Of a DNA stretch of 64,000 nucleotides, positions 1 to 54,303 are shown one piece after another. Position 1 is the stretch's first letter; each line of letters starts with the position of its first letter. A program made the translations under genes and the position numbers. Source of the DNA: a virus; IMG/VR virus record IMGVR_UViG_3300030102_005172, positions 54,053 through 118,052 of that record; one strand, 5' to 3'. The notes beneath the pieces are model-generated. The model saw only the letters and a list, made by a program, of their open reading frames with translations. It searched no databases and was not told the DNA's origin.

Positions 1-2
1 AT

Positions 3-611
3 TGTATCGAGTTCTAAGTTTAGTGCGTCTTTTAAAAACTTCATAGGTGACATCCATGTTTGACCATCATTAGTTAAAATATGTCTGAACTTACTATCTA
101 ATGATTCTCTTTGAAATCCTTCACCAATATCATCTCTATCTAAATAGATTGTTTCGTGTGCTTTTTCAGGATAAAATCTCCAAGGTTCTTTTGCGTTCCA
201 AATCCAAGTTCTGAAATATTTTATACCAGGTCCTTGACATGGTACATTCCAACTTTGTACTGAGGTGTCATTAAATACTGACCAATCGAAGTCATCATCA
301 ACTTGTAATACTTCATCTGCGTCAACTCTTAGAATCCAATCACATCCATGGTCTGCCTCTAACGCAGTTCTTACACAATGGTCTCGATTTATACCATGTC
401 CCTTCCACCAATCTAATTGATATAAGAAACCAGGTATTCCCTTTTCGTTAAAAAAGTTTTTAATTATGTCTTGAGTTCCATCAGTTGAACCATTGTCTTG
501 AATAACCCAATAATCAATGTATGGATATACACTTTCCAACATTCTCTCAATAACATGAGATTCATTATTAACCATTGTGTTAAAACAAAACTTTGCAGTT
601 GTGTTTTTCAT
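3..611 (-). CDS. GT-A (GT2-like) glycosyltransferase, 3' end outside window
   Basis: Not in ORF track. Manual translation from ATG at 611: MKNTTAKFCFNTMVNNESHVIERMLESV...WVIQDNGSTDGT...WILRVDADE (DxGSxD and DxD motifs). Frame is open to the window edge. Confidence 0.85.
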   Translation of the reverse strand, partial: MKNTTAKFCFNTMVNNESHVIERMLESVYPYIDYWVIQDNGSTDGTQDIIKNFFNEKGIPGFLYQLDWWKGHGINRDHCVRTALEADHGCDWILRVDADEVLQVDDDFDWSVFNDTSVQSWNVPCQGPGIKYFRTWIWNAKEPWRFYPEKAHETIYLDRDDIGEGFQRESLDSKFRHILTNDGQTWMSPMKFLKDALNLELDT

Positions 612-29300: not shown

Positions 29301-31109
29301 TTAGCTTTCCCTATTTTCCATAAACGAAACTACAATATAACGAGTACCTTTTGTTGTAGCCCTTGCGCCGTGCTTATGTGTTATATTGCCAGGGTGTAAT
29401 GTTGCGTAACCAATTGGACCTTTTACTAACTTCTTTTGTCTTCTAAACCAAGTACCACCACCCTCGTACTCGTCTAAGTCTGATAATTGTATCAAACAAG
29501 TAATATCTGCTCTATCATGATGTATAGAAAGATGTCCTTGTGCATTTGGTTTATATTTAGCTAAAAAGTTTTCAGATTTCATATCATCCCAACCTTTACC
29601 TTCTAACGCCCATAAATATATGCTAAGTTGCATAACATACTCTTTCATGACATCATTATATATTTCATCCATACCGATTGCGGTTAGTAACATATCTGTT
29701 GTTGGGTAGTTTTCATGTCTATCAACAGTCCATGAGTCTGAATATTCTGCCTCTTCTCTAATTTTTTTACAAAACTCTTCTGTAAATAGTGGGAATGTAA
29801 AACAACTATCAAAAGGTTCATCTACAATCAAATCCCATTCTTTTGTTCTAGCCGAGTATGTAATAAACTTCTTTGTCCATTCTTCTTTATTATCCCAATA
29901 TGAATATAAATCATTATGTAATCTTTGTGAGTCTTGAGGTGGTCTAAATCCCCTAGCCTCATCTGGTAATGTGTCTTGTATCATGTTTAACCAAGTTTTA
30001 TATCTATTATCCCAATTTTGTTGTCTTGCAAATGTTTCTGCTTTGTTTAAATTTTCTTCTAATTTATCACCTTGTTCATTTGAAAAAGCATATGCCGCAA
30101 CAAAAGTATATCTCATTAATCCTGCGTTTTTATTTTCAATGTCTTCATCACTATCTTCTAAAAAAGGTGACTTTTGTTCTTGATTTTTTCCATGTGTAAA
30201 TGAACTAATTAATGTACTTTTATTATTTAGTAATGTTTTTAAATTACCTGTATCTGTTGATAGTACTTTCACTCTACCCATCATCATTTCAAGAGCGGTT
30301 ATACAATATGTTTCAGGATATTGTGATGGATAAATCCACCACTCAGAAGATTTAATTTGTCTAATCAAATCGGATGGATTTAAAGAACCTAAATAATGTA
30401 CATCAAAATTTTTATCATAATTTGGAAAATCTCTTTTGATTCTATTCCATTCGTCCCAATTGTCAGTATAAGGTGGGTTTGCAATCCATAATGTTAATTT
30501 AGGATTTATCTTTTTTAAATCATCCCATATTTGAAGTAAGTTCCATAACCCTCTATCTGGTCCTGATGTATAAATTACTTTATCTTTAAATTTTTCTTGT
30601 GAAATATCATCAAAATCTTGTGGATTTATTGCATTACTTATGACTTTTACTTTATCTGGATTTATATTATATTTTTTAACTAATTTACCTTTTTGCCATT
30701 CTGATACTGCAATTATATTTGTTAATTTAGAATGATTTAGATAGTCTAATCCATTATTTGGTAAAACCTCACCATTGTAAAATGGATAAAATTCTAAATT
30801 ATGTATCCAAAAGTACGATTTGTCAAATGTAATATTTTTTTCTTCAAGGTGTTTAAAATAGTGTATATAATTTGATGCAATTACTACATCAAAGTGTTGA
30901 TTATTTGGAAGATTTCTATAATCAAGATATTTTACATTATTATATGTTTCTTGTTTAACTTGTCCTGTAACATAAACATCATGACCATCACGACCAAACT
31001 TATCTGCTAAATTAATAACACAATACTCAGAACCACCTGTACCATTTTCTTTCCAATCAGTATAACTAAGTGGTTTGTTTTGATATCCTACTGTAAATAA
31101 AACTTTCAT
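29301..31109 (-). CDS. GT-B (GT4-like) glycosyltransferase fused to a PLOD-like lysyl hydroxylase (2OG-Fe(II)) domain
   Basis: N-part: GGSE, IAVSEWQ, YTSGPDRGL, YPSQYPETYCITALE. C-part: FPLFTEEFC, ENYPTTD, NFLAKY.P..Q..L..HHD, YEGGG, LHPG..THKHG..TTKGTRYIVVSF. Confidence 0.88.
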   Translation of the reverse strand: MKVLFTVGYQNKPLSYTDWKENGTGGSEYCVINLADKFGRDGHDVYVTGQVKQETYNNVKYLDYRNLPNNQHFDVVIASNYIHYFKHLEEKNITFDKSYFWIHNLEFYPFYNGEVLPNNGLDYLNHSKLTNIIAVSEWQKGKLVKKYNINPDKVKVISNAINPQDFDDISQEKFKDKVIYTSGPDRGLWNLLQIWDDLKKINPKLTLWIANPPYTDNWDEWNRIKRDFPNYDKNFDVHYLGSLNPSDLIRQIKSSEWWIYPSQYPETYCITALEMMMGRVKVLSTDTGNLKTLLNNKSTLISSFTHGKNQEQKSPFLEDSDEDIENKNAGLMRYTFVAAYAFSNEQGDKLEENLNKAETFARQQNWDNRYKTWLNMIQDTLPDEARGFRPPQDSQRLHNDLYSYWDNKEEWTKKFITYSARTKEWDLIVDEPFDSCFTFPLFTEEFCKKIREEAEYSDSWTVDRHENYPTTDMLLTAIGMDEIYNDVMKEYVMQLSIYLWALEGKGWDDMKSENFLAKYKPNAQGHLSIHHDRADITCLIQLSDLDEYEGGGTWFRRQKKLVKGPIGYATLHPGNITHKHGARATTKGTRYIVVSFMENRES

Positions 31110-31110
31110 A

Positions 31111-32397
31111 TTATTCTACTATATAATTAACAGATTCTTCATTTTCATAATATCGATTGTCATCCCTATAACCAATTTCTTTTATAGAATGTCCTGCCTC
31201 ATCATCCCACATCCAATCTTCTTTTCCAAGTTCTTCAAATCTTTCTTTGATTTGAAAATCATAATAATCTCTAATCAACCTTGCTCTTCGATTAATATCT
31301 ATTCTATTGTTATCAACAGTAGAATCACCATTATTATATTGTACATATAGCATTTTTTTCAGATGTATAAATTTAGTTTCTAAAAATGTTTTAATAATTA
31401 ATTCAAAATCATCTGCTACTGATATGTTTCTACTATGTCCTCTTATTTTATGATAAGTATCTCTATGCCAAACTCTACAATGATTAGGCATTCCTATATT
31501 ATATCTAATAGTTTTTGGATTTATTTCTGGATAATGATGAACTAACCAATCTCTATTATCAATGTTTTTCCAAGTGTGACCTGCGTATCCCCACACAAAT
31601 CCATTATCAGGATGATGATACCAATCATCACCGATGTGACCATAAATTCTTGGTGAATCATCTTTTTCTATTTCTGTTACATCCGTATAAATAAATCCAG
31701 CGTCTTTATGTTTTCTACTTGCATTTAGTACATCCTCTAAACAAGTTGATATTAACCAATCATCATGGTCTAACTCAAATAACCACTCACCATCACATAA
31801 CATAGCCGCTCTGTGTTTTGCTTCACCCACATTTCCACCTGATATTGGGAGTATTCTATGTGGTTTTACTCTATAATCTAACTTTGCTATATGATTTAAC
31901 ATTTCCCAAGTTAAATTATGGTCTTCAGGTGAATCATCTACAACTACCCATTCCCAATTTTGATATGTTTGTTCAACTAAAGATTTGTATGTTCTAAAAA
32001 TTCTTTTTTCTGTTTTATATGTTGGTGTAAATACTGATAATAATGGAGTTTCTTCATTACTATAAATTTCATTTGTTGAACAAGCCCAAAATGTTGAATT
32101 ACAAACTATATCATTTGCAATAATGTTGTCACTTAGTATTTCTTCACTACCAATTATTTTTGATTCAACTATTAGATTATCTATTTCTTCTAATTCAATA
32201 GGTAACTTACCAAAATGAAAAATAACATCTGGTTTATGTTTAGATAAATGTAGTTTAAAGTTTTTACTTGAAGGATATGAGTGTACTACTACTTTTTCAT
32301 ACAAACCTTCTTGAAAATAGACATCTGATGTAAGTTCATATCTTCCAAATCTATTCCAACCATAAACTAAAGCCGTTGGTAAAGTTGTTTTTTGCAT
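31111..32397 (-). CDS. GT2 glycosyltransferase
   Basis: LSVFTPTY, QTYQNWEWVVVDDS, FELDHDD, ADDFELI. Confidence 0.9.
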   Translation of the reverse strand: MQKTTLPTALVYGWNRFGRYELTSDVYFQEGLYEKVVVHSYPSSKNFKLHLSKHKPDVIFHFGKLPIELEEIDNLIVESKIIGSEEILSDNIIANDIVCNSTFWACSTNEIYSNEETPLLSVFTPTYKTEKRIFRTYKSLVEQTYQNWEWVVVDDSPEDHNLTWEMLNHIAKLDYRVKPHRILPISGGNVGEAKHRAAMLCDGEWLFELDHDDWLISTCLEDVLNASRKHKDAGFIYTDVTEIEKDDSPRIYGHIGDDWYHHPDNGFVWGYAGHTWKNIDNRDWLVHHYPEINPKTIRYNIGMPNHCRVWHRDTYHKIRGHSRNISVADDFELIIKTFLETKFIHLKKMLYVQYNNGDSTVDNNRIDINRRARLIRDYYDFQIKERFEELGKEDWMWDDEAGHSIKEIGYRDDNRYYENEESVNYIVE

Positions 32398-32400
32398 ATC

Positions 32401-33003
32401 CTATCTGTATGGTTCACCACCTACCCATAATACAAAAGATTTTCTTACACCTTTTGTTACAGGAGTTATTCTATGTAAATAAAATGATGGAAATATTACT
32501 GCAGCACCTTGTACTCTTGGTGCAACAAGTTTTTTACCAATATTAAACTCTAAATCACCACCTTCGTATTCATCTGAATCTGAAAGTTGTACAGTTACTG
32601 ATATTTTTCTTTGATTTTGTATTTCAATTCCACAATCCATGTGCCATTCATATCCACCTTCTTGTGTTCCATAGTATTCTGTATATTGAATTTGTTCATT
32701 CATGGTAGATAAATCAAACTTCCACATTTTATTATTTGATTCTGCAATCATATCGTGAAGTTTTTTGTATACCCATCCCCATTCTTGATTTTGAGGACAC
32801 CACTTTATTCTTGATTTTCTATAATCTGATTTTTTTGATTGTTGACCTTCGCCTGTTACTGCGTCTTGAAACTCAATTTGTTTGGTCATACCTTCTATGG
32901 TTTGTAACTCTTGTAGAGTAAATCCATCTTTAAACCAATAATAATCGTTGAAATTAACATCCCATCTATAAGGGTTTCTATCGAATCCAAAATTTGTTCT
33001 CAT
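32401..33003 (-). CDS. 2OG-Fe(II) oxygenase (PKHD / prolyl-hydroxylase-like)
   Basis: WHMD, RKISVTVQL, YEGGDL, FPSFYLHRITPVTKGVRKSFVLW. Confidence 0.92.
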   Translation of the reverse strand: MRTNFGFDRNPYRWDVNFNDYYWFKDGFTLQELQTIEGMTKQIEFQDAVTGEGQQSKKSDYRKSRIKWCPQNQEWGWVYKKLHDMIAESNNKMWKFDLSTMNEQIQYTEYYGTQEGGYEWHMDCGIEIQNQRKISVTVQLSDSDEYEGGDLEFNIGKKLVAPRVQGAAVIFPSFYLHRITPVTKGVRKSFVLWVGGEPYR

Positions 33004-33044: not shown

Positions 33045-36000
33045 TTAGTAAAAGCTACCACTATGTACAGACCTTACTATGTAAACATCATCACCCTCAG
33101 ACCAACCTTCAGGTTTAAATGTTAGTACACCACCAGTAACTTCAAAGTATCCATCGCCAGGTATTTGAGAACCTTGAGCACCTGCTCCACCACCCGTTCC
33201 TACTGTTCCTGTTGGTCCTTGAGCACCTTGAGCACCTTGATTACCTTTAGCACCTACTGCGCCAGTATTTCCTTTATTACCTTTAGAACCTTTAGTACCT
33301 ACTGCGCCTGTATTACCTTTTTTACCTTTGTTACCTGCGTCACCTGTTTCGCCTGTACGACCTAAGTTACCTTTACTACCTTTAGCACCTGCATTACCTT
33401 GTGGACCTGTATTACCCTTTTGACCTTTTGAACCTTGAGCACCTTCATCACCAGATGCGCCTGTATTACCTTTTATACCTGTAAGACCTGTATTACCTTT
33501 TTGACCTTTAGCACCTGCGTCGCCTGTTTCACCCGTTGCACCTGTTGAACCTTGTCGACCCTCTCCACCTGTTGAACCTTTAGCACCTGCGTTACCTTGT
33601 ACTCCTTTATGTCCCTTGTTTCCTTTTGAACCTTGAGCACCCTCATCACCTGATGCGCCTGTTGAACCTCTATTACCTTTGTTACCAGTTGCACCTTGAG
33701 AACCTACTGCACCTGCGTTACCTTGTGCTCCTCTATTTCCCTTGTTACCCGTTGCACCTTTATTACCTTTTGCACCTGCCGCGCCTGTATTACCTTTTAC
33801 ACCAGTTGCACCTTGAAGTCCTTGAGCACCTTCATTACCTGATGCGCCTGTTGAACCTATATTACCTTTGTTACCAGTTGCACCTTGAGCACCTTGGTTT
33901 CCACTTGCACCTTGAGCACCTCGATTACCCTTTGCACCTTGATTTCCTTGAGAACCTTGATTTCCTGCCGCGCCTGTATTACCTTTTACACCAGTTGCAC
34001 CTTGAGCACCTTGAGCACCTTCATCACCTGAAGCACCTTGTACTCCTTTATGTCCCTTTTGACCTTTTGAACCTTGAGCACCTTGATTACCTTTAGCACC
34101 TGCTGCACCTTGAGAACCTACTGCACCTTGAACTCCGGCATTACCTTGAGAACCTTGATTACCTGCAGCGCCTGTATTACCTTTTACACCCGTTGCACCT
34201 GGTTCACCTTTTTTACCTTTTTGACCCACAGAACCTTGAGCACCTTGAGCACCTTGGTTTCCTTTTGCACCTTGAGCACCTTGATTACCTTTAGCACCTG
34301 CAGCACCTTGAGAACCTACTGCACCTTGAACTCCGTCATTACCTTGAGAACCTTGATTTCCTGCTGCGCCTGGGTTTCCTATTTTACCATCACGACCTAA
34401 ATTACCTTTTTGACCTTTGTTACCACTTGCACCTTGAGCACCTTGAGCACCTCGGTTTCCTTTTGCACCTTGATTACCTTTAGCACCTTTAGCACCTGCC
34501 GCACCTTGAGCACCTTCAGCACCTTGAACTCCGTCATTACCTTGAGAACCTTGATTACCTGCTGCGCCGGTATTTCCTTTATGACCATTACGACCTAAAT
34601 TACCTTTTTGACCTTTATTACCTGCAGCGCCTGTATTACCTTTTGCACCTTGATTACCTTGAGAACCTTGATTACCTGCAGCGCCTGTATTTCCTTTTAC
34701 ACCAGTTGCACCTTGAGCTCCCCTAGCACCTTCATCTACTAAACCACCTACTGCACCTTGAGCACCTTGAGCACCTGCAGCACCTTGTTCACCAGTAAAA
34801 TCTTCCTCTAATATTTGTTCAGGGTCCATGTCAGAACCTTTTTGTCCCTTAGAACCTTGATTACCTTGATTACCTTTAACACCAGTTGCACCTTGAGGGC
34901 CTGTTGCACCTTGAGGGCCTGTATTTCCTTTTGCACCTTGTAGACCTGTTGCACCACCTTCACCTTTTGGACCTGCCGTACCTCTATTCCCTTTATCACC
35001 TGTTGCGCCTGTATTTCCTTTTGCACCTTGTCTACCTGTGTTTCCACTATTCCCAACTGCACCTTGAGCACCTTGTGCACCTGTTTCACCATCAAAGTCT
35101 GGCTCTAATATTCCTTCGGGGTCCATCTCAGAACCTTTTTGTCCCTTTTGACCTGTTGCACCTTGATTACCTTTAACACCAGTTGCACCTTGAGGGCCTG
35201 TTGCACCTTGAGGGCCAGTTGCACCTTTTAAACCTTGTGGACCTTGAGCACCACCTTCACCTTTTGGAGCTCCAGCGCCAGTATTACCTTTTGCACCTGT
35301 TCTACCCGTTGCACCTGTCGAACCTTTAGCACCTGCGGCGCCCCTATTTCCTTTTGAACCTGTACGACCTAAGTTACCTTTAGCACCAAAATCACCCCCA
35401 CTACCTTTATTTCCTTTTACACCTGTTGCACCTTGAGCACCTTGAGCGCCTGTTTCAGCCGCTGCACCTTGTCTACCTGTATTTCCTTTTACACCTTGTG
35501 GACCTTGAGCACCTTGGTTTCCACTTGCACCTTTATTTCCTTTATGGCCTGTTGCACCTGCTGCACCTTGAGCACCTTGATTACCTACTCGGCCTGTATT
35601 TCCTTTTGCACCTTGTCTACCTGTGTTTCCACTTGGAGCGTCTACACCTGCCGCACCCGGCACACCAGTATTTCCTTTATGGCCTGTTGCACCCATTGAA
35701 CCTTTTTGACCTGCGGCGCCAGTATTTCCTTTATGGCCTGTTGCACCCGTTGAACCTTTTTGACCTGCAATACCTGTATTTCCTTTTACACCTGTTGCGC
35801 CTGTATTTCCTTTTGCACCTTTATTACCTGCAGCGCCTGTATTACCTTTTGCACCCGTTCTACCTTGATTACCCGTTGAACCTTTTTGACCTACTGCGCC
35901 GGTATTTCCTTTTGCACCTGTTCTACCCGTTGCGCCTGTTGAACCCTTTGCACCTGCTGCGCCTGTATTTCCTTTTGCACCTGTTCTACCTAAATTTCCT

Positions 36001-37148
36001 GTTGGTGGGTCTGCACCTGCCGAACCTGGCCTACCTACTCGGCCTGTATTTCCTTTTGAACCTGTTGCACCTTGAGGGCCTGTTGCGCCTGTTGGGGCGT
36101 CTGAACCTGCCGCTCCTTGAGCACCTTGAGCACCATTTAGGGCCACATCAGCTGAAGCTCCTTGAGCACCAGCAGACCCAACTTTTCCTTGAGAACCTGC
36201 TGCACCTTGAGCACCTTGAGCACCTGTTGGTCCAAGTTGTCCAGCTGGTGCCAGATGTTCCTCTCCTTTTTGACCTTTTGAACCTTTAGGACCTGTTGAA
36301 GAGTCTGAATCGGTACAAGAACTACAATTTGAGAACCAATCGAAATTATCTACAGTTAAACATAATGCAGTACCATCTGGAAAACTAGCGTTTGTACCAC
36401 TAAAGTTGTAACAAATATTACTGATTTTTGCTACATTGTTTGGTCTTGTATCATCAAATGCAAAACTTGCTGGTCCATATCCACTACATCTTGGTACATT
36501 ATTATACTGAACTGAACATCCCTCATCACCATTAAAAAAGTTGTGTACTACGAATCTATTTACCATGAATAGGTCAGATTCTTCTACATCTAAACTTCTA
36601 ACATCAAAATATCCATATATAGGTTCATCTTCATTTACTTCTTGTACACCATCTATAATTGGTACATATTCGAATGTAGAATTATCTTCTTTTAGTCTTA
36701 CTAAGTAATGATTGTCATAATCACTTGCATTTCCCCACTCAAGACCATCTAATTGTTCAAAGAAAACATTCCATCCGCTTTGAAAAGATGATGTAGTTTC
36801 AGTTTCTTCGTCCCAACTAAATGCTCTATTTTTTTGAGCAACCATGATGTATTCATCTTCATCGAGAGTTAGTGAACCTGATGGTGTTTCTAATGTGTAT
36901 AGTGATTTCCAAAGTCTTGTACCTATTGGTCCTACATCTTTGATAACCTCATTTTCATTTAATTGAAGATATGAAAAATCATCGTAACTACCTGTCCAAT
37001 TTATTGGAATGTCATTATTATTTGTATATGGGTTACCAACAATACTAACACCTACAATAGAAGAACCTGTTTGAAGTGTACCTATTGCGGCAGTATTACC
37101 TGATAGATTTAGTAAAGTATGTTGAGATTTTAAGAAACCACCAATCAT
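33045..37148 (-). CDS. collagen-like fibre protein A: Hint domain, Cys-rich domain, Lys-rich Gly-X-Y
   Basis: N-domain ends [18 protein letters not shown] (Asn203); 6-Cys segment; about 1040 aa Gly-X-Y rich in GAK/GNK/GQK. Confidence 0.88.
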
Positions 37149-40100
37149 TGTAACCTTTTATTTTATTTTAAGAAGAACCACTTGTATACATTAATACTAC
37201 AAATTTTGTACTTCCACTTGTAAATGTTAATAATCCGTCTGTTGCCGAGTATGCGAATCCACCACTTCCACCTATTTCAGCGCCACCAATTAATGTTCCT
37301 AATGCATTTGCACCTTTTTGACCTTTACTTCCTTGACCACCTTGAGCACCTGTTGCACCTTGAGCACCTTGTTCACCTGTTGGACTAGCACCTTGAGCAC
37401 CTTGAGCACCTTGGTCACCTTTTGGACTGGCACCTTGAGCACCTTGAGCTCCTGTTGGACTTGCACCTTGAGCACCTTGTGGTCCTTGAGCACCTTGAGC
37501 ACCTTGAGGACTTGCACCTTGAGCACCTGTTGCACCTTGAGCACCTTGTTCACCTTGTTCACCTGTTGGACTAGCACCTTGAGCACCTTGAGAACCTTTT
37601 GGTCCTTGAGCACCTTGAGCTCCTTGAGGACTTGAACCTTGAGCACCTTGAGGTCCTTGAGCACCTTGTGGTCCTTGAGCACCTTGAGCACCTTGAGGAC
37701 TAGCACCTTGAGCACCTGTTACACCTTGAGCACCTTGTTCACCTTGTTCACCTGTTGGACTTGCTCCTTGAGCACCTTGAGGTCCTTGAGCACCTTGAGG
37801 TCCTTGAGCACCTTGAGGACTTGACCCTTGAGCACCTTGTGGTCCTTGAGCACCTTGATTACCTTGAGCACCTTGAGGACTAGCACCTTGAGCACCTTGT
37901 GAACCTTTAGGTCCTTGAGCACCTTGTTCACCTGTTGGACTAGCACCTTGAGCACCTTGAGGTCCTTGAGCACCTTGATTACCTTGAGCACCTTGAGGAC
38001 TTGAACCTTGAGCACCTTGTTCACCTTGTTCACCTTTTGGTCCTTGAGCACCTTGAGGACTGGCACCTTGAGCACCTTGTGAACCTTTAGGTCCTTGAGC
38101 ACCTTGTTCACCTGTTGGACTAGCACCTTGAGCACCTTGGACACCTTGAGCACCTTGAACACCCGTTGCACCTTGAGCACCTTGAGGACTTGAACCTTGA
38201 GCACCTTGTTCACCTTGTTCACCTTGAGCACCTTGAGCACCTTGAGGACTGGCACCTTGAGCACCTTGAGAACCTTTTGGTCCTTGAGCACCCTGTTCAC
38301 CTTGTGGACTTGCCCCTTGAGCACCTTGGAGACCTGTTGCACCTTGAGCACCCGTTGCACCTTGAGCACCTTGCGGACTTGCACCTTGAGCACCTTGTTC
38401 ACCTTGTTCACCTTGAGCACCTTGAGCACCTTGTGGACTTGCTCCTTGAGCACCTTGAGAACCTTTTGGTCCTTGAGCACCTTGAGCACCTTGTGGACTT
38501 GCCCCTTGAGCACCTTGGAGACCTGTTGCACCTTGAGCACCCGTTGCACCTTGAGCACCTTGAGGACTTGAACCTTGAGCACCTTGTTCACCTTGTTCAC
38601 CTTGAGCACCTTGAGCACCTTGAGGACTGGCACCTTGAGCACCTTGAGAACCTTTTGGTCCTTGAGCACCTTGAGCTCCTTGAGGACTTGCACCTTGAGC
38701 ACCTTGAGAACCTTTTGGTCCTTGAGCCCCTGTTGGACTTGCACCTTGAGCACCTTGAGAACCTTTAGGTCCTTGAGCACCTGAATCACCTTGAGCACCT
38801 TGAGCACCTTGAGCACCTGCAGCACCTTGAGCACCTGCACTACCTTGAGCACCTTGTAGACCTTGAGCACCAGTACCTTGGTCACCTTTAGGACCTTTTG
38901 CACCTTGTGCACCTGTATTACCTTTAGGTCCTTGAGCACCTTGTGGTCCTTGAGCACCCGTTGCTCCTTGAGCACCTTGAGGTCCTTGAGCACCTTGAGC
39001 ACCTTGTGGACTTGAACCCGTTGCTCCTTGAGCACCTTGTGGTCCTTGAGCACCTTGATTACCTTTAGGTCCTTGAGCACCTTGAGCACCTGTTGTTCCT
39101 TGTGCACCTTGATTACCTTGAGCACCCGTTGCCCCTTGAGCACCAGCACCTTGGTCACCTTTAGGACCTTTTGCACCTTGTGCACCTGTATTACCTTTAG
39201 GTCCTTGAGCACCTTGTGGTCCTTGCGCACCCGTTGCACCTTGAGCACCTTGATTACCTTGTGGACCTTGAGCACCTTGTGGACTTGAACCTGCCGCTCC
39301 TTGAGCACCTTGAGGTCCTTGAGCACCTTGAGCACCTTGTGGACTTGAACCTTGAGCACCTTGTGAACCTTTAGGTCCTTGAGCACCTTGAGCACCTTGT
39401 GGACTAGCACCTTGAGCACCTTGATTACCTTTTGGTCCTTGAGCACCTTGAGCACCTTGAGGTGATGACCCTGCAGGTCCTTGAGCACCTTGTGAACCTT
39501 TAGGTCCTTGAGCACCTTGAGGACTGGCACCTTGAGCACCTTGATTACCTTTAGGTCCTTGAGCACCTTGAGCACCTTGTGGACTTGAACCTTGAGCACC
39601 TTGTGAACCTTTTGGTCCTTGAGCACCTTGAGCACCTGTTGTAGTTCCACCTTGTGGACCTTGAGCACCTTGAGACCCTTTAGGTCCTTGAGCACCTTGA
39701 GGACTTGAACCTTGAGCACCTTGTGAACCTTTAGGTCCTTGAGCACCTTGAGGACTTGAACCTTGAGCACCTTGTGAACCTTTTGGACCTTGAGCACCTT
39801 GTGAACCTTTTGGACTTGAACCTTGAGCACCTTGTGAACCTTTTGGTCCTTGAGCACCTTGAGCACCTTGTGGACTTGAACCTTGAGCACCTTGTGAACC
39901 TTTTGGACCTTGAGCTCCTTGAGCACCTTGAGGACTTGCACCTTGAGCACCTTGAGAACCTTTTGGACCTTGAGCACCTTGAGCACCTGTTGTAGTTCCA
40001 CCTTGTGGGCCTTGAGCACCTTGTGCACCTTGAGAACCTTTTGGTCCTTGAGCACCTTGAGGTCCTTGAGAACCTTGTGTAGTTCCACCCGTTGCACCTT

Positions 40101-40280
40101 GAGCACCTTGAGAACCTTGTACACTTGCACCCGTTGCACCTTGAGCACCTTGAGAACCTTTTGGTCCTGAACTACCCGATGAACCTTGAGCACCTGTTGG
40201 TCCTTTTGCACCTGTTGAACCTGGCGAACCACCGGCACCTTTTTGACCTTTTTGACCTTTTTGACCTTGTGGTCCTGTGT
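33170..40280. repeat. two low-complexity 9-bp-unit repeat tracts (core CACCTTGAG) encoding collagen triplets
   Basis: About 33170-36300 and 37310-40280, separated by unique sequence. Confidence 0.95.
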
Positions 40281-40722
40281 TATGTACTAATAACTCACCT
40301 ATAAAATAATTGTGGTCAGGTTCTACCTCTATACTTATGAGTTCTATTGGTCCTTCTACATATTTTACTGAAGTGACCTTAATATCGTTGAAGAATAGTT
40401 TACCATCACACTTACAATCTTTATCTGCGCATGATGTATTACCGATTGGTGAAACCCATTCACCATCTTTGAATATTTTTATATCAACGGAAGTTTTTAA
40501 TTCAGTTCCGTCTGAAAGTTTAAGTTCTAAATAGGAGTTTAGTTGTCGTGTAAATTTAGTTACAACCTTGTTGTACCTTACGACACCATTTTCAACATCA
40601 TAACCTTTTATGTAGTCACCAACTTCAATATTTGACAAGTTAATTGGAACACCTTGTCTTTTATTTACTCTTCCTTTGATGTCTACTAAGGTATCTTTAT
40701 GTAATCCATGTATTAATTCCAT
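37168..40722 (-). CDS. collagen-like fibre protein B: Hint domain and Gln/Pro/Ser-rich Gly-X-Y
   Basis: [43 protein letters not shown]|T (Asn148); about 990 aa GAQ/GPQ/GPK with G(A/S)SPQ interruptions. Confidence 0.9.
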
Positions 40723-40732
40723 AATTTACCCC

Positions 40733-41569
40733 TTAACTAACAAAATCAAGTCTTAATATTATTGTAAAACCAAATCCTCGTGACCTTGTGGTTGCCATTC
40801 TATTAATAAATAAATTTAATCTATCATTAGCACTAAAACTATATGATGAACCAAAAGTATAAGTTGTTGGAACACCTGCCGTTGCTGAAATTGAACCACC
40901 TATTGCACTTCCTAAATTTCCAGATTGGTTTTTCCATGTTAGTTCAACTTCACCACCCGTTGCAGATTGATGTGGACTTACAATTACTTTTTCTACATAT
41001 CCATCTACGGGAACAACATATTGCCAATAACCAGTTTGAACATCACCATCTATTTGGTTTATATTTGCAAATGGGATATAACCAGTTGTTTCAGCTGCTT
41101 TTAGTACCTCACCATTTGTATGTATTATTTGTTTTTCTTTTGTTGCGTCAATTAGACCAGTAATTTCAACACCACTACTCTGTACTCTTAATTTTGTACT
41201 ACCACCTCGTCTAAGATGTACTTCATCACTAGCATTTAAAAGTAATTTAGTACCTGAAGTTGTAGATTCTATGTCAGAACTTGCTCCGAAGTTCACTTTC
41301 TTATCTGAAGATAGGTTTATTTCATCTGCAGTAGTGATATCACCACTAACTTGTAAAGAACCTGTGACTTGAACACCAGTATTATTTGTTTTTAATCTTG
41401 TTGAACCGCCTGTTACAAGTACAATAGTATTACCTGCACTAAATCCAAATTTAGTGTCTGTATCACCTAAGTGTTCAACATATTGTGGTATAAGTATTTC
41501 ACCTGATGCGGTGATATCATTCAGTACGGCGTTACTGCCTGATGTAATAAGTTTTTTCCAATTTGGCAT
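40733..41569 (-). CDS. putative fibre/virion protein
   Basis: MPNWKKLITSGS N-terminus, beta-rich Gly/Ser/Thr composition. Confidence 0.7.
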   Translation of the reverse strand: MPNWKKLITSGSNAVLNDITASGEILIPQYVEHLGDTDTKFGFSAGNTIVLVTGGSTRLKTNNTGVQVTGSLQVSGDITTADEINLSSDKKVNFGASSDIESTTSGTKLLLNASDEVHLRRGGSTKLRVQSSGVEITGLIDATKEKQIIHTNGEVLKAAETTGYIPFANINQIDGDVQTGYWQYVVPVDGYVEKVIVSPHQSATGGEVELTWKNQSGNLGSAIGGSISATAGVPTTYTFGSSYSFSANDRLNLFINRMATTRSRGFGFTIILRLDFVS

Positions 41570-42084: not shown

Positions 42085-43797
42085 TTACACATAGATATAA
42101 ATCTCATTTGATTCTATTCTAATATTACCTGCGTGGTCTGCTTTTGCAGTTGCTGCGTCATCTGCATTTCCTGAGAATACACCTGCTACATAGTAACCAG
42201 TAGTTCCAGCTGCAAAGTTAGAAGTACTATTGTGAGCAACATCAGTTGTTGATACTGCCAAACGACCATCATTACTATTAAAAGAATAATCCCAAATAAG
42301 TGCTTTACCTTGTTGTGCAGTTCCACTTGTTCCACCAAATACAATACCTGCGTCTTTTGCAGTTGAACCAGAGTTAACCAAAATAAATTGGTCTTCTACA
42401 TTCAAGTTTGTAGTATTAAGTGTTGTTGTTGTACCATTAACTACTAAATCACCAGATAATGTTAAATTAGCAAATGCTACATTATTACCTGTTGCTAGTC
42501 CTTGGTCAATTGCTTTAACTGCTGCTAGGTTAGTTAATTCAGAATCCATTAATGCTCCAGCTGCCGTTACATTAGTCGCATCTGTTACATCTGCACCATC
42601 TTCTACATTTAATGCAGATAACATTTCAGTTTTATTTAAACCTTCTACATCTGTTCCGTTGATTCTTAAGAAATCATCGTCTGCTACATCAGCTGCTGCG
42701 ATTAAAACATTTCCTTCTGAAATACCACTTGCTAATGATTTTACAAATGCAAGATTTGTTACTTCTGAATCCATCAATGCACCTGCATTTGTTACATTTG
42801 TAGTATTTGCAGTTAACTTAGCGTCATTTGCAGTTACTCTTGTACTAAATGAAGCACTTGCTTGTACGAATGAACCTGAAATTCCTGCTTTTGTTAATCC
42901 TTTAACCAATGCTAAATCAGTAACTTCTGAATCCATCAATGCACCTGCTGAAGTTACATTTGCAGTATCAGTAACATCTGCATTATTCTCAACACTAATC
43001 ATTGTTCTAACTTGTGCTGCAGTCAATGCGCTTGGTGCTGCTGAACCTTCTGATACATTACCTAAAATCCTAGCGTCTGCAATATTTGCAAGTTTCGCTA
43101 ATGTAACACCACTATCTTTAATTCTTAGTGCGTCTGAGTTAAGTTCGATTGTTGAATCATCAACACCTACTGCTAATGAAATAGTTCCATTACTTCCTGT
43201 ATTTACAGTAAATGAACCACCACCTGATAAACCATTACCTGCAGTTATTGTGATTGTTGAATCTTGAACACCACCTAATGCAGATACCTGCGCTGATGAT
43301 GATACTAATCCTGCACCTAATCCTGCTAATGCGGTTGCTGATAATGAACCTGAGATTCCTGCTTTTGTTAATGCTTTTACTGTTGCGATTTCTGTAAGTT
43401 CAGAATCCATTAATGCACCTGCACTTGTTACATTTGCAGTATCAGTTACATCTGCTCCGTCTTCAACATTAATTAATGTTCTTACATTTGCAGCAGTTAA
43501 TTCACTTGGTGCTGCTGAACCACCTGAAACATTACCTAATATTCTATCATCGGCGATGTTTGCTATTTTTGCGAGTGTTACACCACTATTTTTTACACTA
43601 ATGGTTCTCGCACCAGAACCATCATATGTGGTTCCTGAGTTAAGTTGGATTGTCGAATCATCTACCGTCAGACTATTTCCAACTTGGGTTGCCGTCCCTG
43701 TTACATTACCAACTAAATTTCCTTTGAATCCGGCGGATGCGGATACATTAAGAAGGTCGGCACTTGAACCTGAGACAATGACTTTTTTCCATCCCAT
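42085..43797 (-). CDS. tail fibre-like protein with internal repeats
   Basis: Four (ADVTD..)NVT.AGALMDSE units; GDLVVNGTTTTLNTTNLNVED fibre motif; SD AGGAG. Confidence 0.75.
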   Translation of the reverse strand: MGWKKVIVSGSSADLLNVSASAGFKGNLVGNVTGTATQVGNSLTVDDSTIQLNSGTTYDGSGARTISVKNSGVTLAKIANIADDRILGNVSGGSAAPSELTAANVRTLINVEDGADVTDTANVTSAGALMDSELTEIATVKALTKAGISGSLSATALAGLGAGLVSSSAQVSALGGVQDSTITITAGNGLSGGGSFTVNTGSNGTISLAVGVDDSTIELNSDALRIKDSGVTLAKLANIADARILGNVSEGSAAPSALTAAQVRTMISVENNADVTDTANVTSAGALMDSEVTDLALVKGLTKAGISGSFVQASASFSTRVTANDAKLTANTTNVTNAGALMDSEVTNLAFVKSLASGISEGNVLIAAADVADDDFLRINGTDVEGLNKTEMLSALNVEDGADVTDATNVTAAGALMDSELTNLAAVKAIDQGLATGNNVAFANLTLSGDLVVNGTTTTLNTTNLNVEDQFILVNSGSTAKDAGIVFGGTSGTAQQGKALIWDYSFNSNDGRLAVSTTDVAHNSTSNFAAGTTGYYVAGVFSGNADDAATAKADHAGNIRIESNEIYIYV

Positions 43798-53734: not shown

Positions 53735-54303
53735 TTTATTAGGTCTTTCAATTTCATTGATTTAGATTCATTTGTAAATTCTTTTGCATTTTCTTTATCA
53801 TCTTTGTCAACAGACTTTACAGGATATTTTTTACCATCTACTTCAAATTCATTTTCTCCTTTAGCAATCGCTTTAGCTCTTGCAGCGCCAAATTCGTTTC
53901 CTTCTTTAATTTCATAATATTTCGAAAGTACTTCACCGATTTCATCATAAGTGGACTCCAATCTCTGTTGTAGTGTATGAACCTCTGTTAAAGTCTTTTG
54001 GAAAACTTTAAAAGATTCGTTCATAGATTTCATGTGTCTATTTACTGTAACTCTATCAAACCAATCACCTGTTTCTTCAAGTGTTACTTTGTTTGCGTTT
54101 TCAACAATACCTTTAATAGCAGTATATGTTTCCATAAGGTCACCATTACGATAAATTGTTTCACCAAATTTCTTGTATGCAGATACGGCTTCAAGAAATG
54201 CTTTCTTTTCTTCAGAAGTCATTTTTTGTTCTTTTTCTTCTTCACCGATATTTAGTCTTCTATAATCTTTAGTAGATTCTTTTAATAAGCTTTTTAATTT
54301 CAT
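53731..54303 (-). CDS. putative prohead core/internal protein
   Basis: MKLKSLLKE N-terminus; follows the protease gene. Confidence 0.65.
   Translation of the reverse strand: MKLKSLLKESTKDYRRLNIGEEEKEQKMTSEEKKAFLEAVSAYKKFGETIYRNGDLMETYTAIKGIVENANKVTLEETGDWFDRVTVNRHMKSMNESFKVFQKTLTEVHTLQQRLESTYDEIGEVLSKYYEIKEGNEFGAARAKAIAKGENEFEVDGKKYPVKSVDKDDKENAKEFTNESKSMKLKDLIK

Follow-up and report, generated by a model that had tools for sequence, protein, structure and literature searches.

Putative self-cleaving Hint pro-domains at the N-terminal ends of two phage collagen-like fibre proteins

The Hint fold is known to serve protein splicing (inteins), cholesterol transfer (hedgehog proteins) and, in BIL domains bearing a cysteine at position 1 (Cys1), N- or C-terminal cleavage. 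The block-B histidine of inteins strains the N-terminal scissile bond, and a Trp/Cys/Thr signature marks the class 3 inteins. Inteins without a nucleophile at position 1 are known as well (classes 2 and 3); class 2 requires the B:10 histidine together with an aspartate at F:4, and class 3 requires a cysteine at F:4 within its signature of Trp (B:12), Cys (F:4) and Thr (G:5), as set out in passages of one review (PMC4031507). The same passages document off-pathway C-terminal cleavage through cyclisation of the terminal asparagine, a step that needs catalysis by the fold and is assisted by the histidines at G:6 and F:13, which are dispensable in some inteins (a residue other than His stands at G:6 in ~5% of functional inteins). 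Likewise, cleavage of the C-terminus through Asn is described for A-type BIL domains in another article (PMC7765530). Here, these systems are compared with two adjacent genes on a 64,000-nucleotide stretch (positions 54,053 to 118,052 of IMG/VR record IMGVR_UViG_3300030102_005172; the whole stretch is hereafter called the window) from an uncultivated marine phage, the record being 118 kb long with an estimated completeness of 66%. The genes encode two collagen-like proteins, chain B and chain A, each of which starts with a Hint domain. The terminal Asn of these domains has been selectively retained, while loss or drift has affected Cys1, the B:10 His and, in chain A, the F:13 His and the +1 residue. 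A sequence-only reading of the window had interpreted the domains as autoproteolytic pro-domains released by C-terminal cleavage. That interpretation is partly supported, its fold and its pattern of loss and retention being solid; we lean modestly towards both domains acting as asparagine-lyase pro-domains capable of C-terminal cleavage only.

Hint domains at the start of both chains

The N-terminal domain of chain B (residues 1-148; 40279..40722, minus strand) is a Hint domain as judged from sequence comparison, with Gly6 at intein position 1. Searched alone against the PDB with phmmer, chain B matched the gp41-1 intein (E 9.6e-4), a Clostridium thermocellum BIL domain (1.7e-3) and the Pho RadA intein (6.4e-3), and the alignments stopped exactly at its H-N. 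With a 10-row family profile, E-values ranged from 1.6e-6 to 7e-3 and 8/8 of the listed matches were Hint domains, among them BIL2 of the Tetrahymena BUBL locus (6y75/6tmm; 1.6e-6), gp41-1 (3e-5) and 2lwy (3.5e-3). In Pfam, PT-HINT scored 20.5 bits on chain B, below its curated cut-off of 27.7, and Intein_splicing reached E 2.5e-3; across the B family, Intein_splicing was found at E <= 0.01 in 8/10 members and PT-HINT in 5/10. The fold of chain B is read from profiles because a single-sequence AlphaFold2 (AF2) model reached a predicted local distance difference test score (pLDDT) of only 36.7. A homotrimer prediction with three copies of the domain (scores of 0.02 and 0.20 against a mark of 0.42) argues neither for nor against a role in trimerisation.

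The N-terminal domain of chain A (residues 1-203; 36540..37148, minus strand) is a Hint domain at the level of the predicted fold only, no Hint family or structure being matched significantly by sequence. As a single sequence it gave 0 matches in the PDB, an 8-row profile retrieved one unrelated chain at chance level (E 0.94), and a Pfam Hint match was found in 0/22 members of the A family. An ESM Atlas look-up returned viral Hint clusters at 0.76-0.79, values below the reliability range of the tool that serve as a lead only. The AF2 model of residues 1-300, built from a 22-row alignment (mean pLDDT 69.9, predicted TM-score 0.61), was compared with 48,161 representative chains using VIA-align; the NpuDnaB intein matched over the range 1..203 with Z 16.5 and a root-mean-square deviation of 1.9 Å over 138 residues, followed by hedgehog 1at0 (Z 16.3), BIL2 (Z 15.6) and gp41-1 (Z 15.6). 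All 28 PDB chains at Z >= 8 had the Hint fold (inteins, hedgehog, BIL, Vint), and the best non-Hint match stood at Z 2.6. Foldseek against the PDB also gave only Hint domains at the top (1at0 at E 6.6e-5, then BIL2 and inteins; target TM-scores 0.7-0.8). Several inteins superpose from residue 1 to their last residue on residues 4..203 of the model, so that Gly4 corresponds to position 1 and Asn203 to the terminal Asn.

The sequence-only reading had seen a Hint-like domain at the start of each chain and had taken Asn203 for the terminal intein Asn of chain A; the chain B profile, the chain A model and the end-to-end intein alignment bear it out on both counts. It had also suggested an AlphaFold model as a check of the fold, and that of chain A returned the Hint fold.

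Catalytic positions lost and kept

Where class 1 inteins have Cys or Ser at position 1, both chains have glycine: Gly6 within GLHKDTLV (residues 6-13) of chain B and Gly4 within GFLKSQHTL (residues 4-12) of chain A, so placed by the intein alignment. The Thr-x-x-His of block B is missing too. The region reads KTSVDIKI (residues 76-83) in chain B, where the register is ambiguous (TSVD or S78..I81) with no His at B:10 in either; the B family has T/S-x-x-D or S..I there, with no His in 10/10 members. Residues 88-106 of chain A contain no His, and the A family has no conserved one there. The C-terminal end is kept: chain B closes with LLVHN (residues 144-148), carrying H137 at F:13 and H147-N148 at the penultimate (G:6) and terminal (G:7) positions, and chain A closes with FVVHN (residues 199-203), carrying D192 at the F:13-equivalent position and H202-N203. 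In chain B the Asn148 codon ends at 40279 and is followed by TGPQG and then by uninterrupted G-X-Y, the repeats beginning at residue 150 without a linker; in chain A the Asn203 codon ends at 36540 and FFNGD follows. The predicted scissile bonds are Asn148/Thr149 of chain B (40276..40281, minus strand), at a conserved HN-TGP junction, and Asn203/Phe204 of chain A (36537..36542, minus strand), placed by the end-to-end intein alignment with the model.

Both domains belong to the Hint fold superfamily (a horseshoe-like all-beta fold with termini meeting at one site; chain A by model, chain B by profile), and their nearest relatives are BIL-type domains. In addition to the missing position-1 and block-B residues, a +1 Cys, Ser or Thr is present in chain B only (Thr), the N-extein amounts to 3-5 residues in both chains, and neither domain interrupts a conserved host protein. 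At the positions of the class 3 signature, chain B has Lys82, Ser130 and Val146, and F:4 is variable in the A family. With A-type BIL domains the two share the C-terminal His-Asn, the mini-Hint form without endonuclease and residence in a variable, non-conserved protein, and they have Gly in place of the N-terminal Cys/Ser nucleophile. Because these defining N-terminal features fail, the domains should not be filed as class 1 or class 3 inteins or as A-type BIL domains. A scan limited to the N-terminal domains and the C-terminal ends of the two window proteins found no Peptidase_S74 (PF13884), the C-terminal ends matching only Collagen.

Homologue sets were obtained by an exhaustive HMMER search of 1.84 billion representative sequences and by scans of IMG/VR. 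Near-full-length proteins gave no match in a word-indexed search with chain B residues 1-150 and chain A residues 1-285, and tblastn with both N-terminal domains gave no match in 50,697 phage records, a collection that possibly lacks records near the window. Among the representatives, the chain B domain matched 260 proteins at E <= 1e-3, 20 at <= 1e-10 and 3 at <= 1e-30. The close matches all begin at residue 1, with M-x-(L/H)-I-H-(G/S/A)-L-H-K-D-T-L, and the distant ones come from bacterial proteins, as tandem Hint/BIL domains that carry Cys-Phe/Leu at position 1, T-x-x-H and H-N-K. A positional motif count over the 164 distant domain instances spanning >= 90 profile positions gave Cys plus a hydrophobic residue at position 1 in 148 and a Ser motif in 2, with 10 truncated at the N-terminus and 4 showing neither. 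In the fibre Hint family position 1 is Gly, rarely Ser, Ala or Val, and comparison of these sequences indicates that the loss of Cys1 is derived.

In IMG/VR, relatives of chain B occur in 16 loci (46-83% identity), and those of chain A in 3 loci, extended to 17 by profile; the order B then A holds in 6/6 distinct related contigs with enough downstream sequence. Upstream of the start there are only 0-3 in-frame codons before a stop (19/19 loci), and the distance from the end of the preceding gene to the start of the Hint gene is 10, 11, 13 or 14 nt in different relatives. Because this offset varies between 10 and 14 nt, no conserved frameshift fusion is possible, and fusion to the upstream gene by frameshift or readthrough is ruled out. 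The HN-TGP junction was found in 16/16 loci and in 6/6 library proteins that reach it, with collagen after it in the latter. Among sequences reaching the position, the terminal Asn is kept in 22/22 of the B family and 20/20 of the A family, and the penultimate His in 22/22 and 19/20, respectively. In the 10-row B family (48-83% identity to the window), I4, H5, G6, L7, H8, K9, S78, D80 and S130 are invariant, as are E132-V-E-P-D-H-N-Y139, H147, N148, T149, G150 and P151 (10/10 rows). The A family is far more divergent, its 22 rows showing pairwise identities of 19-99% (median 35%); apart from the start Met, 11/203 positions are invariant, and N203 and D192 are among them. Its +1 residue (n=20) is P in 11 sequences, F in 5, and D, A, R and E in 1 each. 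No orthologue lacking the Hint domain was found with the last 60 residues of chain A, a weak test since 18/27 of the matching loci are cut inside the collagen; of the others, 8 are complete and Hint-bearing and 1 is a short aberrant open reading frame (ORF).

Chains A and B share almost no sequence. BLASTP between them gave E 0.055 over the last 27 residues, and an earlier hhalign comparison with 8 rows gave 47.8% over 43 N-terminal columns. With the families trimmed at the Asn, the hhalign alignment is colinear from block A through the final H-N and pairs D192 of the A family with the F:13 His of chain B. A value of 99.5%, obtained with the collagen tails retained, was discarded as an artefact because the G-X-Y repeats inflate it.

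The fold, the residues lost and kept, the missing N-extein and their conservation are established by these comparisons. The sequence-only reading had quoted the motifs of both chains with their coordinates, and all are present as it gave them; it was likewise right that neither chain has an N-terminal nucleophile, that almost no N-extein exists, that chain B lacks the block-B His (as does chain A) and that the +1 Phe of chain A is non-nucleophilic, the residues found there in the family being P, F, D, A, R and E. Its view that the domains are not mobile inteins agrees with the absence of an endonuclease and of a conserved insertion site, and with their stable inheritance in two paralogous fibre genes. 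Its suggestion that a loss pattern shared by two divergent copies reflects selection is strengthened, the terminal Asn being invariant in both families while other positions are lost or drift. Its chemical premise, C-terminal cleavage by Asn cyclisation, is backed by the passages of the review cited above.

Several further observations concern the domains and their relatives. A loop insertion in the Hint domain of chain B holds a Cys cluster, C-x3-C-x-C (residues ~98-106; 40390-40430, minus strand), possibly a site for a metal or a disulfide; the window and the L001, L004, L008 and L009 clades have it, the L010/L012/L016 clade, P0006 and P0007 lack it, and one B-family member has a weak metallothionein-type Pfam match. 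In BFVD, the chain A model matched uncharacterised proteins of uncultured Caudovirales in which Hint is joined with FN3, PASTA or collagen repeats (e.g., ranks 1, 4, 25 and 44); therefore Hint domains in phage structural-type proteins are perhaps widespread, and non-intein Hint domains may be common in such proteins. In other proteins (P0102, P0130 of 6256 aa, P0124, P0069 and others) the apparent start falls within a Hint domain or at its margin, Cys1 being missing and T-x-x-H and H-N intact. They could be further Hint domains of the N-terminal, C-cleaving kind, or their starts may have been mis-called on fragmentary contigs.

Self-cleavage weighed against other explanations

Neither chain can start splicing, as each has Gly at position 1, lacks the block-B His and carries no more than 3-5 residues ahead of the domain. 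The asparagine-lyase reading follows from the loss of the N-terminal chemistry, with the C-terminal end kept, in two lineages almost without shared sequence; from this pattern we infer cleavage, together with its timing, rate and purpose. The collagen chains would be made as precursors whose Hint domain (148 or 203 residues), probably derived from BIL domains, keeps the C-terminal catalytic end, namely the closing His-Asn pair and, at F:13, an invariant residue that is His in B and Asp in A. After folding, the terminal Asn would cyclise to a succinimide, the Asn/+1 peptide bond would be broken, and the Hint domain would be released as a fragment of 16.7 kDa (B) or 23.0 kDa (A), the calculated masses of residues 1-148 and 1-203, close to the ~17 and ~23 kDa anticipated from the sequence-only reading. 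Mature chain B would then be a bare collagen rod starting with TGPQG, and mature chain A would expose a new N-terminus in its six-Cys domain, starting with FFNGD. The Hint domain would thus be a single-turnover, self-removing N-terminal pro-domain (an asparagine lyase), possibly serving to maintain the solubility or the register of the chains pending formation of the triple helix.

A known kind of self-cleaving module is found in one A-type homologue, a loose analogy that counts in favour of the asparagine-lyase reading: P0159 carries a Peptidase_S74 domain (30.6 bits against a cut-off of 22). This metagenomic protein of 494 aa has an N-terminal Hint domain without Cys1 ending in IVHN-PP, a short collagen and the C-terminal Peptidase_S74, and, from its domain content, could be a fibre precursor bearing a self-cleaving module at either end.

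More doubtfully, the Hint domain could be an N-terminal counterpart of the phage intramolecular chaperones, reporting on assembly as well as removing itself. It would hold or cap the N-terminal end of each collagen chain, and the folding triple helix, on reaching the junction, would trigger Asn cyclisation, so that self-removal completes fibre assembly. Gating by the triple helix is proposed because the repeats of chain B begin at +2.

Several points weigh against cleavage in either form. Asn cyclisation is slow in many inteins when the N-terminal steps do not take place; in Mxe GyrA it is 10-fold faster with the branched intermediate, according to passages of the review (PMC4031507), and because such uncoupled cleavage is often slow, activity cannot be assumed. 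Chain A has Asp, not His, at F:13, Pro stands at +1 in 11/20 sequences of its family, and one A-family sequence has Arg for the penultimate His (VVRN-RF; L032 1752-2540, with the near-identical L033). The fold of chain A depends on a predicted model of middling confidence, and the comparison of the two families is weak once the collagen tails are removed (hhalign trimmed at the Asn: P 0.0068, probability 5.6%). The invariant Asn and His could have been kept for packing of the last strand and not for catalysis. Finally, removal of the Hint domain would leave chain B without an N-terminal globular part, so that its attachment to the virion would have to proceed via the 46-aa C-terminal domain.

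The main alternative, which we regard as possible but less likely, is that the Hint domain is catalytically dead and retained as a globular N-terminal head on the mature fibre, for example as a docking adaptor, with the His-Asn being structural. Most catalytic positions are indeed lost (both chains lack Cys1 and the B:10 His, and A also lacks the F:13 His and a +1 nucleophile), Arg is tolerated in place of the penultimate His in one A-family sequence, and fibre proteins normally need an N-terminal attachment domain, of which chain B has no other candidate since it contains no other N-terminal globular part. What such a head leaves unexplained is the invariance of the terminal Asn (22/22 and 20/20), even though identity in the A family falls to 19% and the other catalytic positions have drifted. 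Hedgehog-type Hint domains fold without a terminal Asn, which also speaks against a purely structural role. Moreover, the G-X-Y repeats of chain B start two residues past the Asn with no linker, and the N-terminal motif of the neighbouring fibre genes, WKK-(V/L)-I-(V/T)-S-G-S, is absent from both collagens.

Far less probable is a non-canonical splicing of class 2 or class 3 type, in which the peptide of 3-5 residues (MELIH in chain B) would be ligated to the collagen via the +1 Thr or the F:4 Ser. The invariance of I4, H5, G6, L7, H8, K9, S130 (F:4) and T149 (+1) in 10/10 of the B family would fit such a reaction, and inteins lacking the position-1 nucleophile do exist in those two classes (PMC4031507). 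However, the B:10 His and F:4 Asp of class 2 and the F:4 Cys of class 3 are all absent here; the A family has no +1 nucleophile (P, F, D, A, R, E) and a variable F:4; and ligation of so short a peptide offers no obvious gain. The F:4 Ser itself looks like a neutral variant, because F:4 is Asn in 145/171 distant BIL domains. That the domains are decaying remnants of mobile inteins, or a chance resemblance of motifs, without a function of their own, is hardly credible. The flanking DNA matches cyanophage-like myoviruses and the best PDB match of chain B alone is the cyanophage-like gp41-1 intein, as a remnant would have it, but there is no homing endonuclease, no N-extein and no insertion in a conserved host protein, and the closest Cys1-bearing relatives are tandem BIL-type bacterial domains, not inteins in replication genes. 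The significance of the fold match is very high, and the ORFs are intact, paired in 6/6 related contigs and present in 16 + 17 IMG/VR loci; this conservation contradicts the remnant or chance reading, and the search for an orthologue without the Hint domain, weak as it was, found none.

Gene neighbourhood and comparison with known systems

Chains B and A are encoded by two long minus-strand ORFs arranged head to tail, with chain A directly downstream of chain B. The chain B gene (37168..40722, minus strand; 1184 aa) comprises the putative Hint pro-domain, the collagen-like rod and a small C-terminal domain; the chain A gene (33045..37148, minus strand; 1367 aa) comprises the divergent putative Hint pro-domain, a six-Cys domain, the collagen-like rod and a small C-terminal domain. 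G-X-Y repeats make up most of both chains, the Pfam Collagen score lies above the cut-off, and the repeat also gives rise to numerous overlapping ORFs in the other frames. An AAGG-type ribosome-binding site lies 7-8 nt upstream of each ATG, and the stop of the preceding gene lies 10 and 19 nt before the ATG of the two collagen genes, in a different frame. The Cys-rich (six-Cys) domain of chain A (residues 204 to ~285; 36294..36539, minus strand), situated between the Hint domain and the collagen, differs in length and sequence among clades, and in homologue P0170 the segment from the Asn to the collagen has only ~20 residues and no Cys. It has no Pfam match, and nothing in the structure search with the whole model rose above Z 2.6, Hint matches apart.

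The C-terminal non-collagen domains of chain B (~46 aa; 37171..37308, minus strand) and chain A (~39 aa; 33048..33164, minus strand) were read from the ORFs and are conserved in closed orthologues. They are alike, with G-(L/V)-L-T-F in both and an end formed by S-G-S plus 1-2 residues, and are possible trimerisation or attachment modules. Upstream of chain B, two fibre-like genes (40733-41569 and 42085-43797, minus strand) match PHROG tail-fibre families and start with the motif M-x-x-W-K-K-(V/L/I)-I-(V/T)-S-G-S, which is also found in their equivalents in L004, L009, L010 and L016; the Hint domain occupies that place in the two collagens. The likeness of the flanking fibre genes to Synechococcus/Prochlorococcus T4-like myoviruses is weak (15 records, each <=4% of the query).

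Directly downstream of chain A (29301-33003, minus strand) lie three genes of hydroxylase-like or glycosyltransferase-like type, also on the minus strand: a 200-aa 2-oxoglutarate (2OG)-Fe(II) oxygenase (PF13640, E 3.6e-13), a GT2 glycosyltransferase (PF00535, E 1.8e-16) and a 602-aa protein in which GT4/GT1 domains are fused to an OGFOD2-like oxygenase domain. The three resemble a set for collagen hydroxylation and glycosylation. In every related contig with sequence reaching that far, the A-type gene is succeeded by the 200-aa oxygenase gene, and glycosyltransferase-like genes were seen in only some of them.

Searches of openly available full-text articles found no account of a Hint domain carried by a phage collagen or fibre protein. 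In the parts consulted, the papers on phiCbK and CBB describe terminase inteins only, and those on pelagimyophages and Prochlorococcus phages collagen repeats only. If cleavage occurs, these genes would represent a natural lineage of Hint domains without N-terminal chemistry, acting by the Asn end only, at the start of structural proteins and in two paralogous collagen genes; evolution would have reached the self-removing-tag design of protein engineers, and an autocatalytic propeptide step would be added to an apparent phage locus for collagen maturation, with its adjoining 2OG-oxygenase and glycosyltransferase genes. If the triple helix gates the reaction, the Hint fold would gain a new role in biology, and the domain could serve directly as a traceless self-cleaving tag. 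Even if no cleavage takes place, the two chains remain a clear case of the Hint fold recruited as a non-catalytic fibre domain.

Among the systems described so far, BIL domains are the closest relatives in sequence, and resemble the present domains as mini-Hint domains without endonuclease, with a His-Asn end and often without a +1 nucleophile, in variable proteins. BIL domains differ in having a Cys/Ser start and an N-terminal flank that can be cleaved or spliced, whereas the phage domains have Gly at position 1, no block-B His, a location at the very N-terminus and a phage collagen rod as the C-terminal flank. Mini-inteins with a Cys1-to-Ala change are used in biotechnology as self-removing N-terminal tags. 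The logic proposed here is the same, a Hint domain without its nucleophile preceding the target and releasing it by Asn cyclisation alone; the engineered forms, however, are laboratory mutants, while these are natural, occur in two paralogous gene families and have also lost the block-B His. With Peptidase_S74, the chaperone of endosialidase, the domains would share the role of a self-removing domain on a trimeric phage fibre precursor. The S74 domain is C-terminal, has an unrelated fold and chemistry (a Ser-Lys dyad), and its chaperone function is demonstrated. Lastly, in animal procollagen a globular pro-domain, the N-propeptide, is removed from the N-terminal end of a collagen chain, as is proposed for the phage chains, whose genes adjoin hydroxylase- and glycosyltransferase-like genes; the animal propeptide is not homologous and not autocatalytic, being cut by separate metalloproteases, whereas the phage domain would remove itself.

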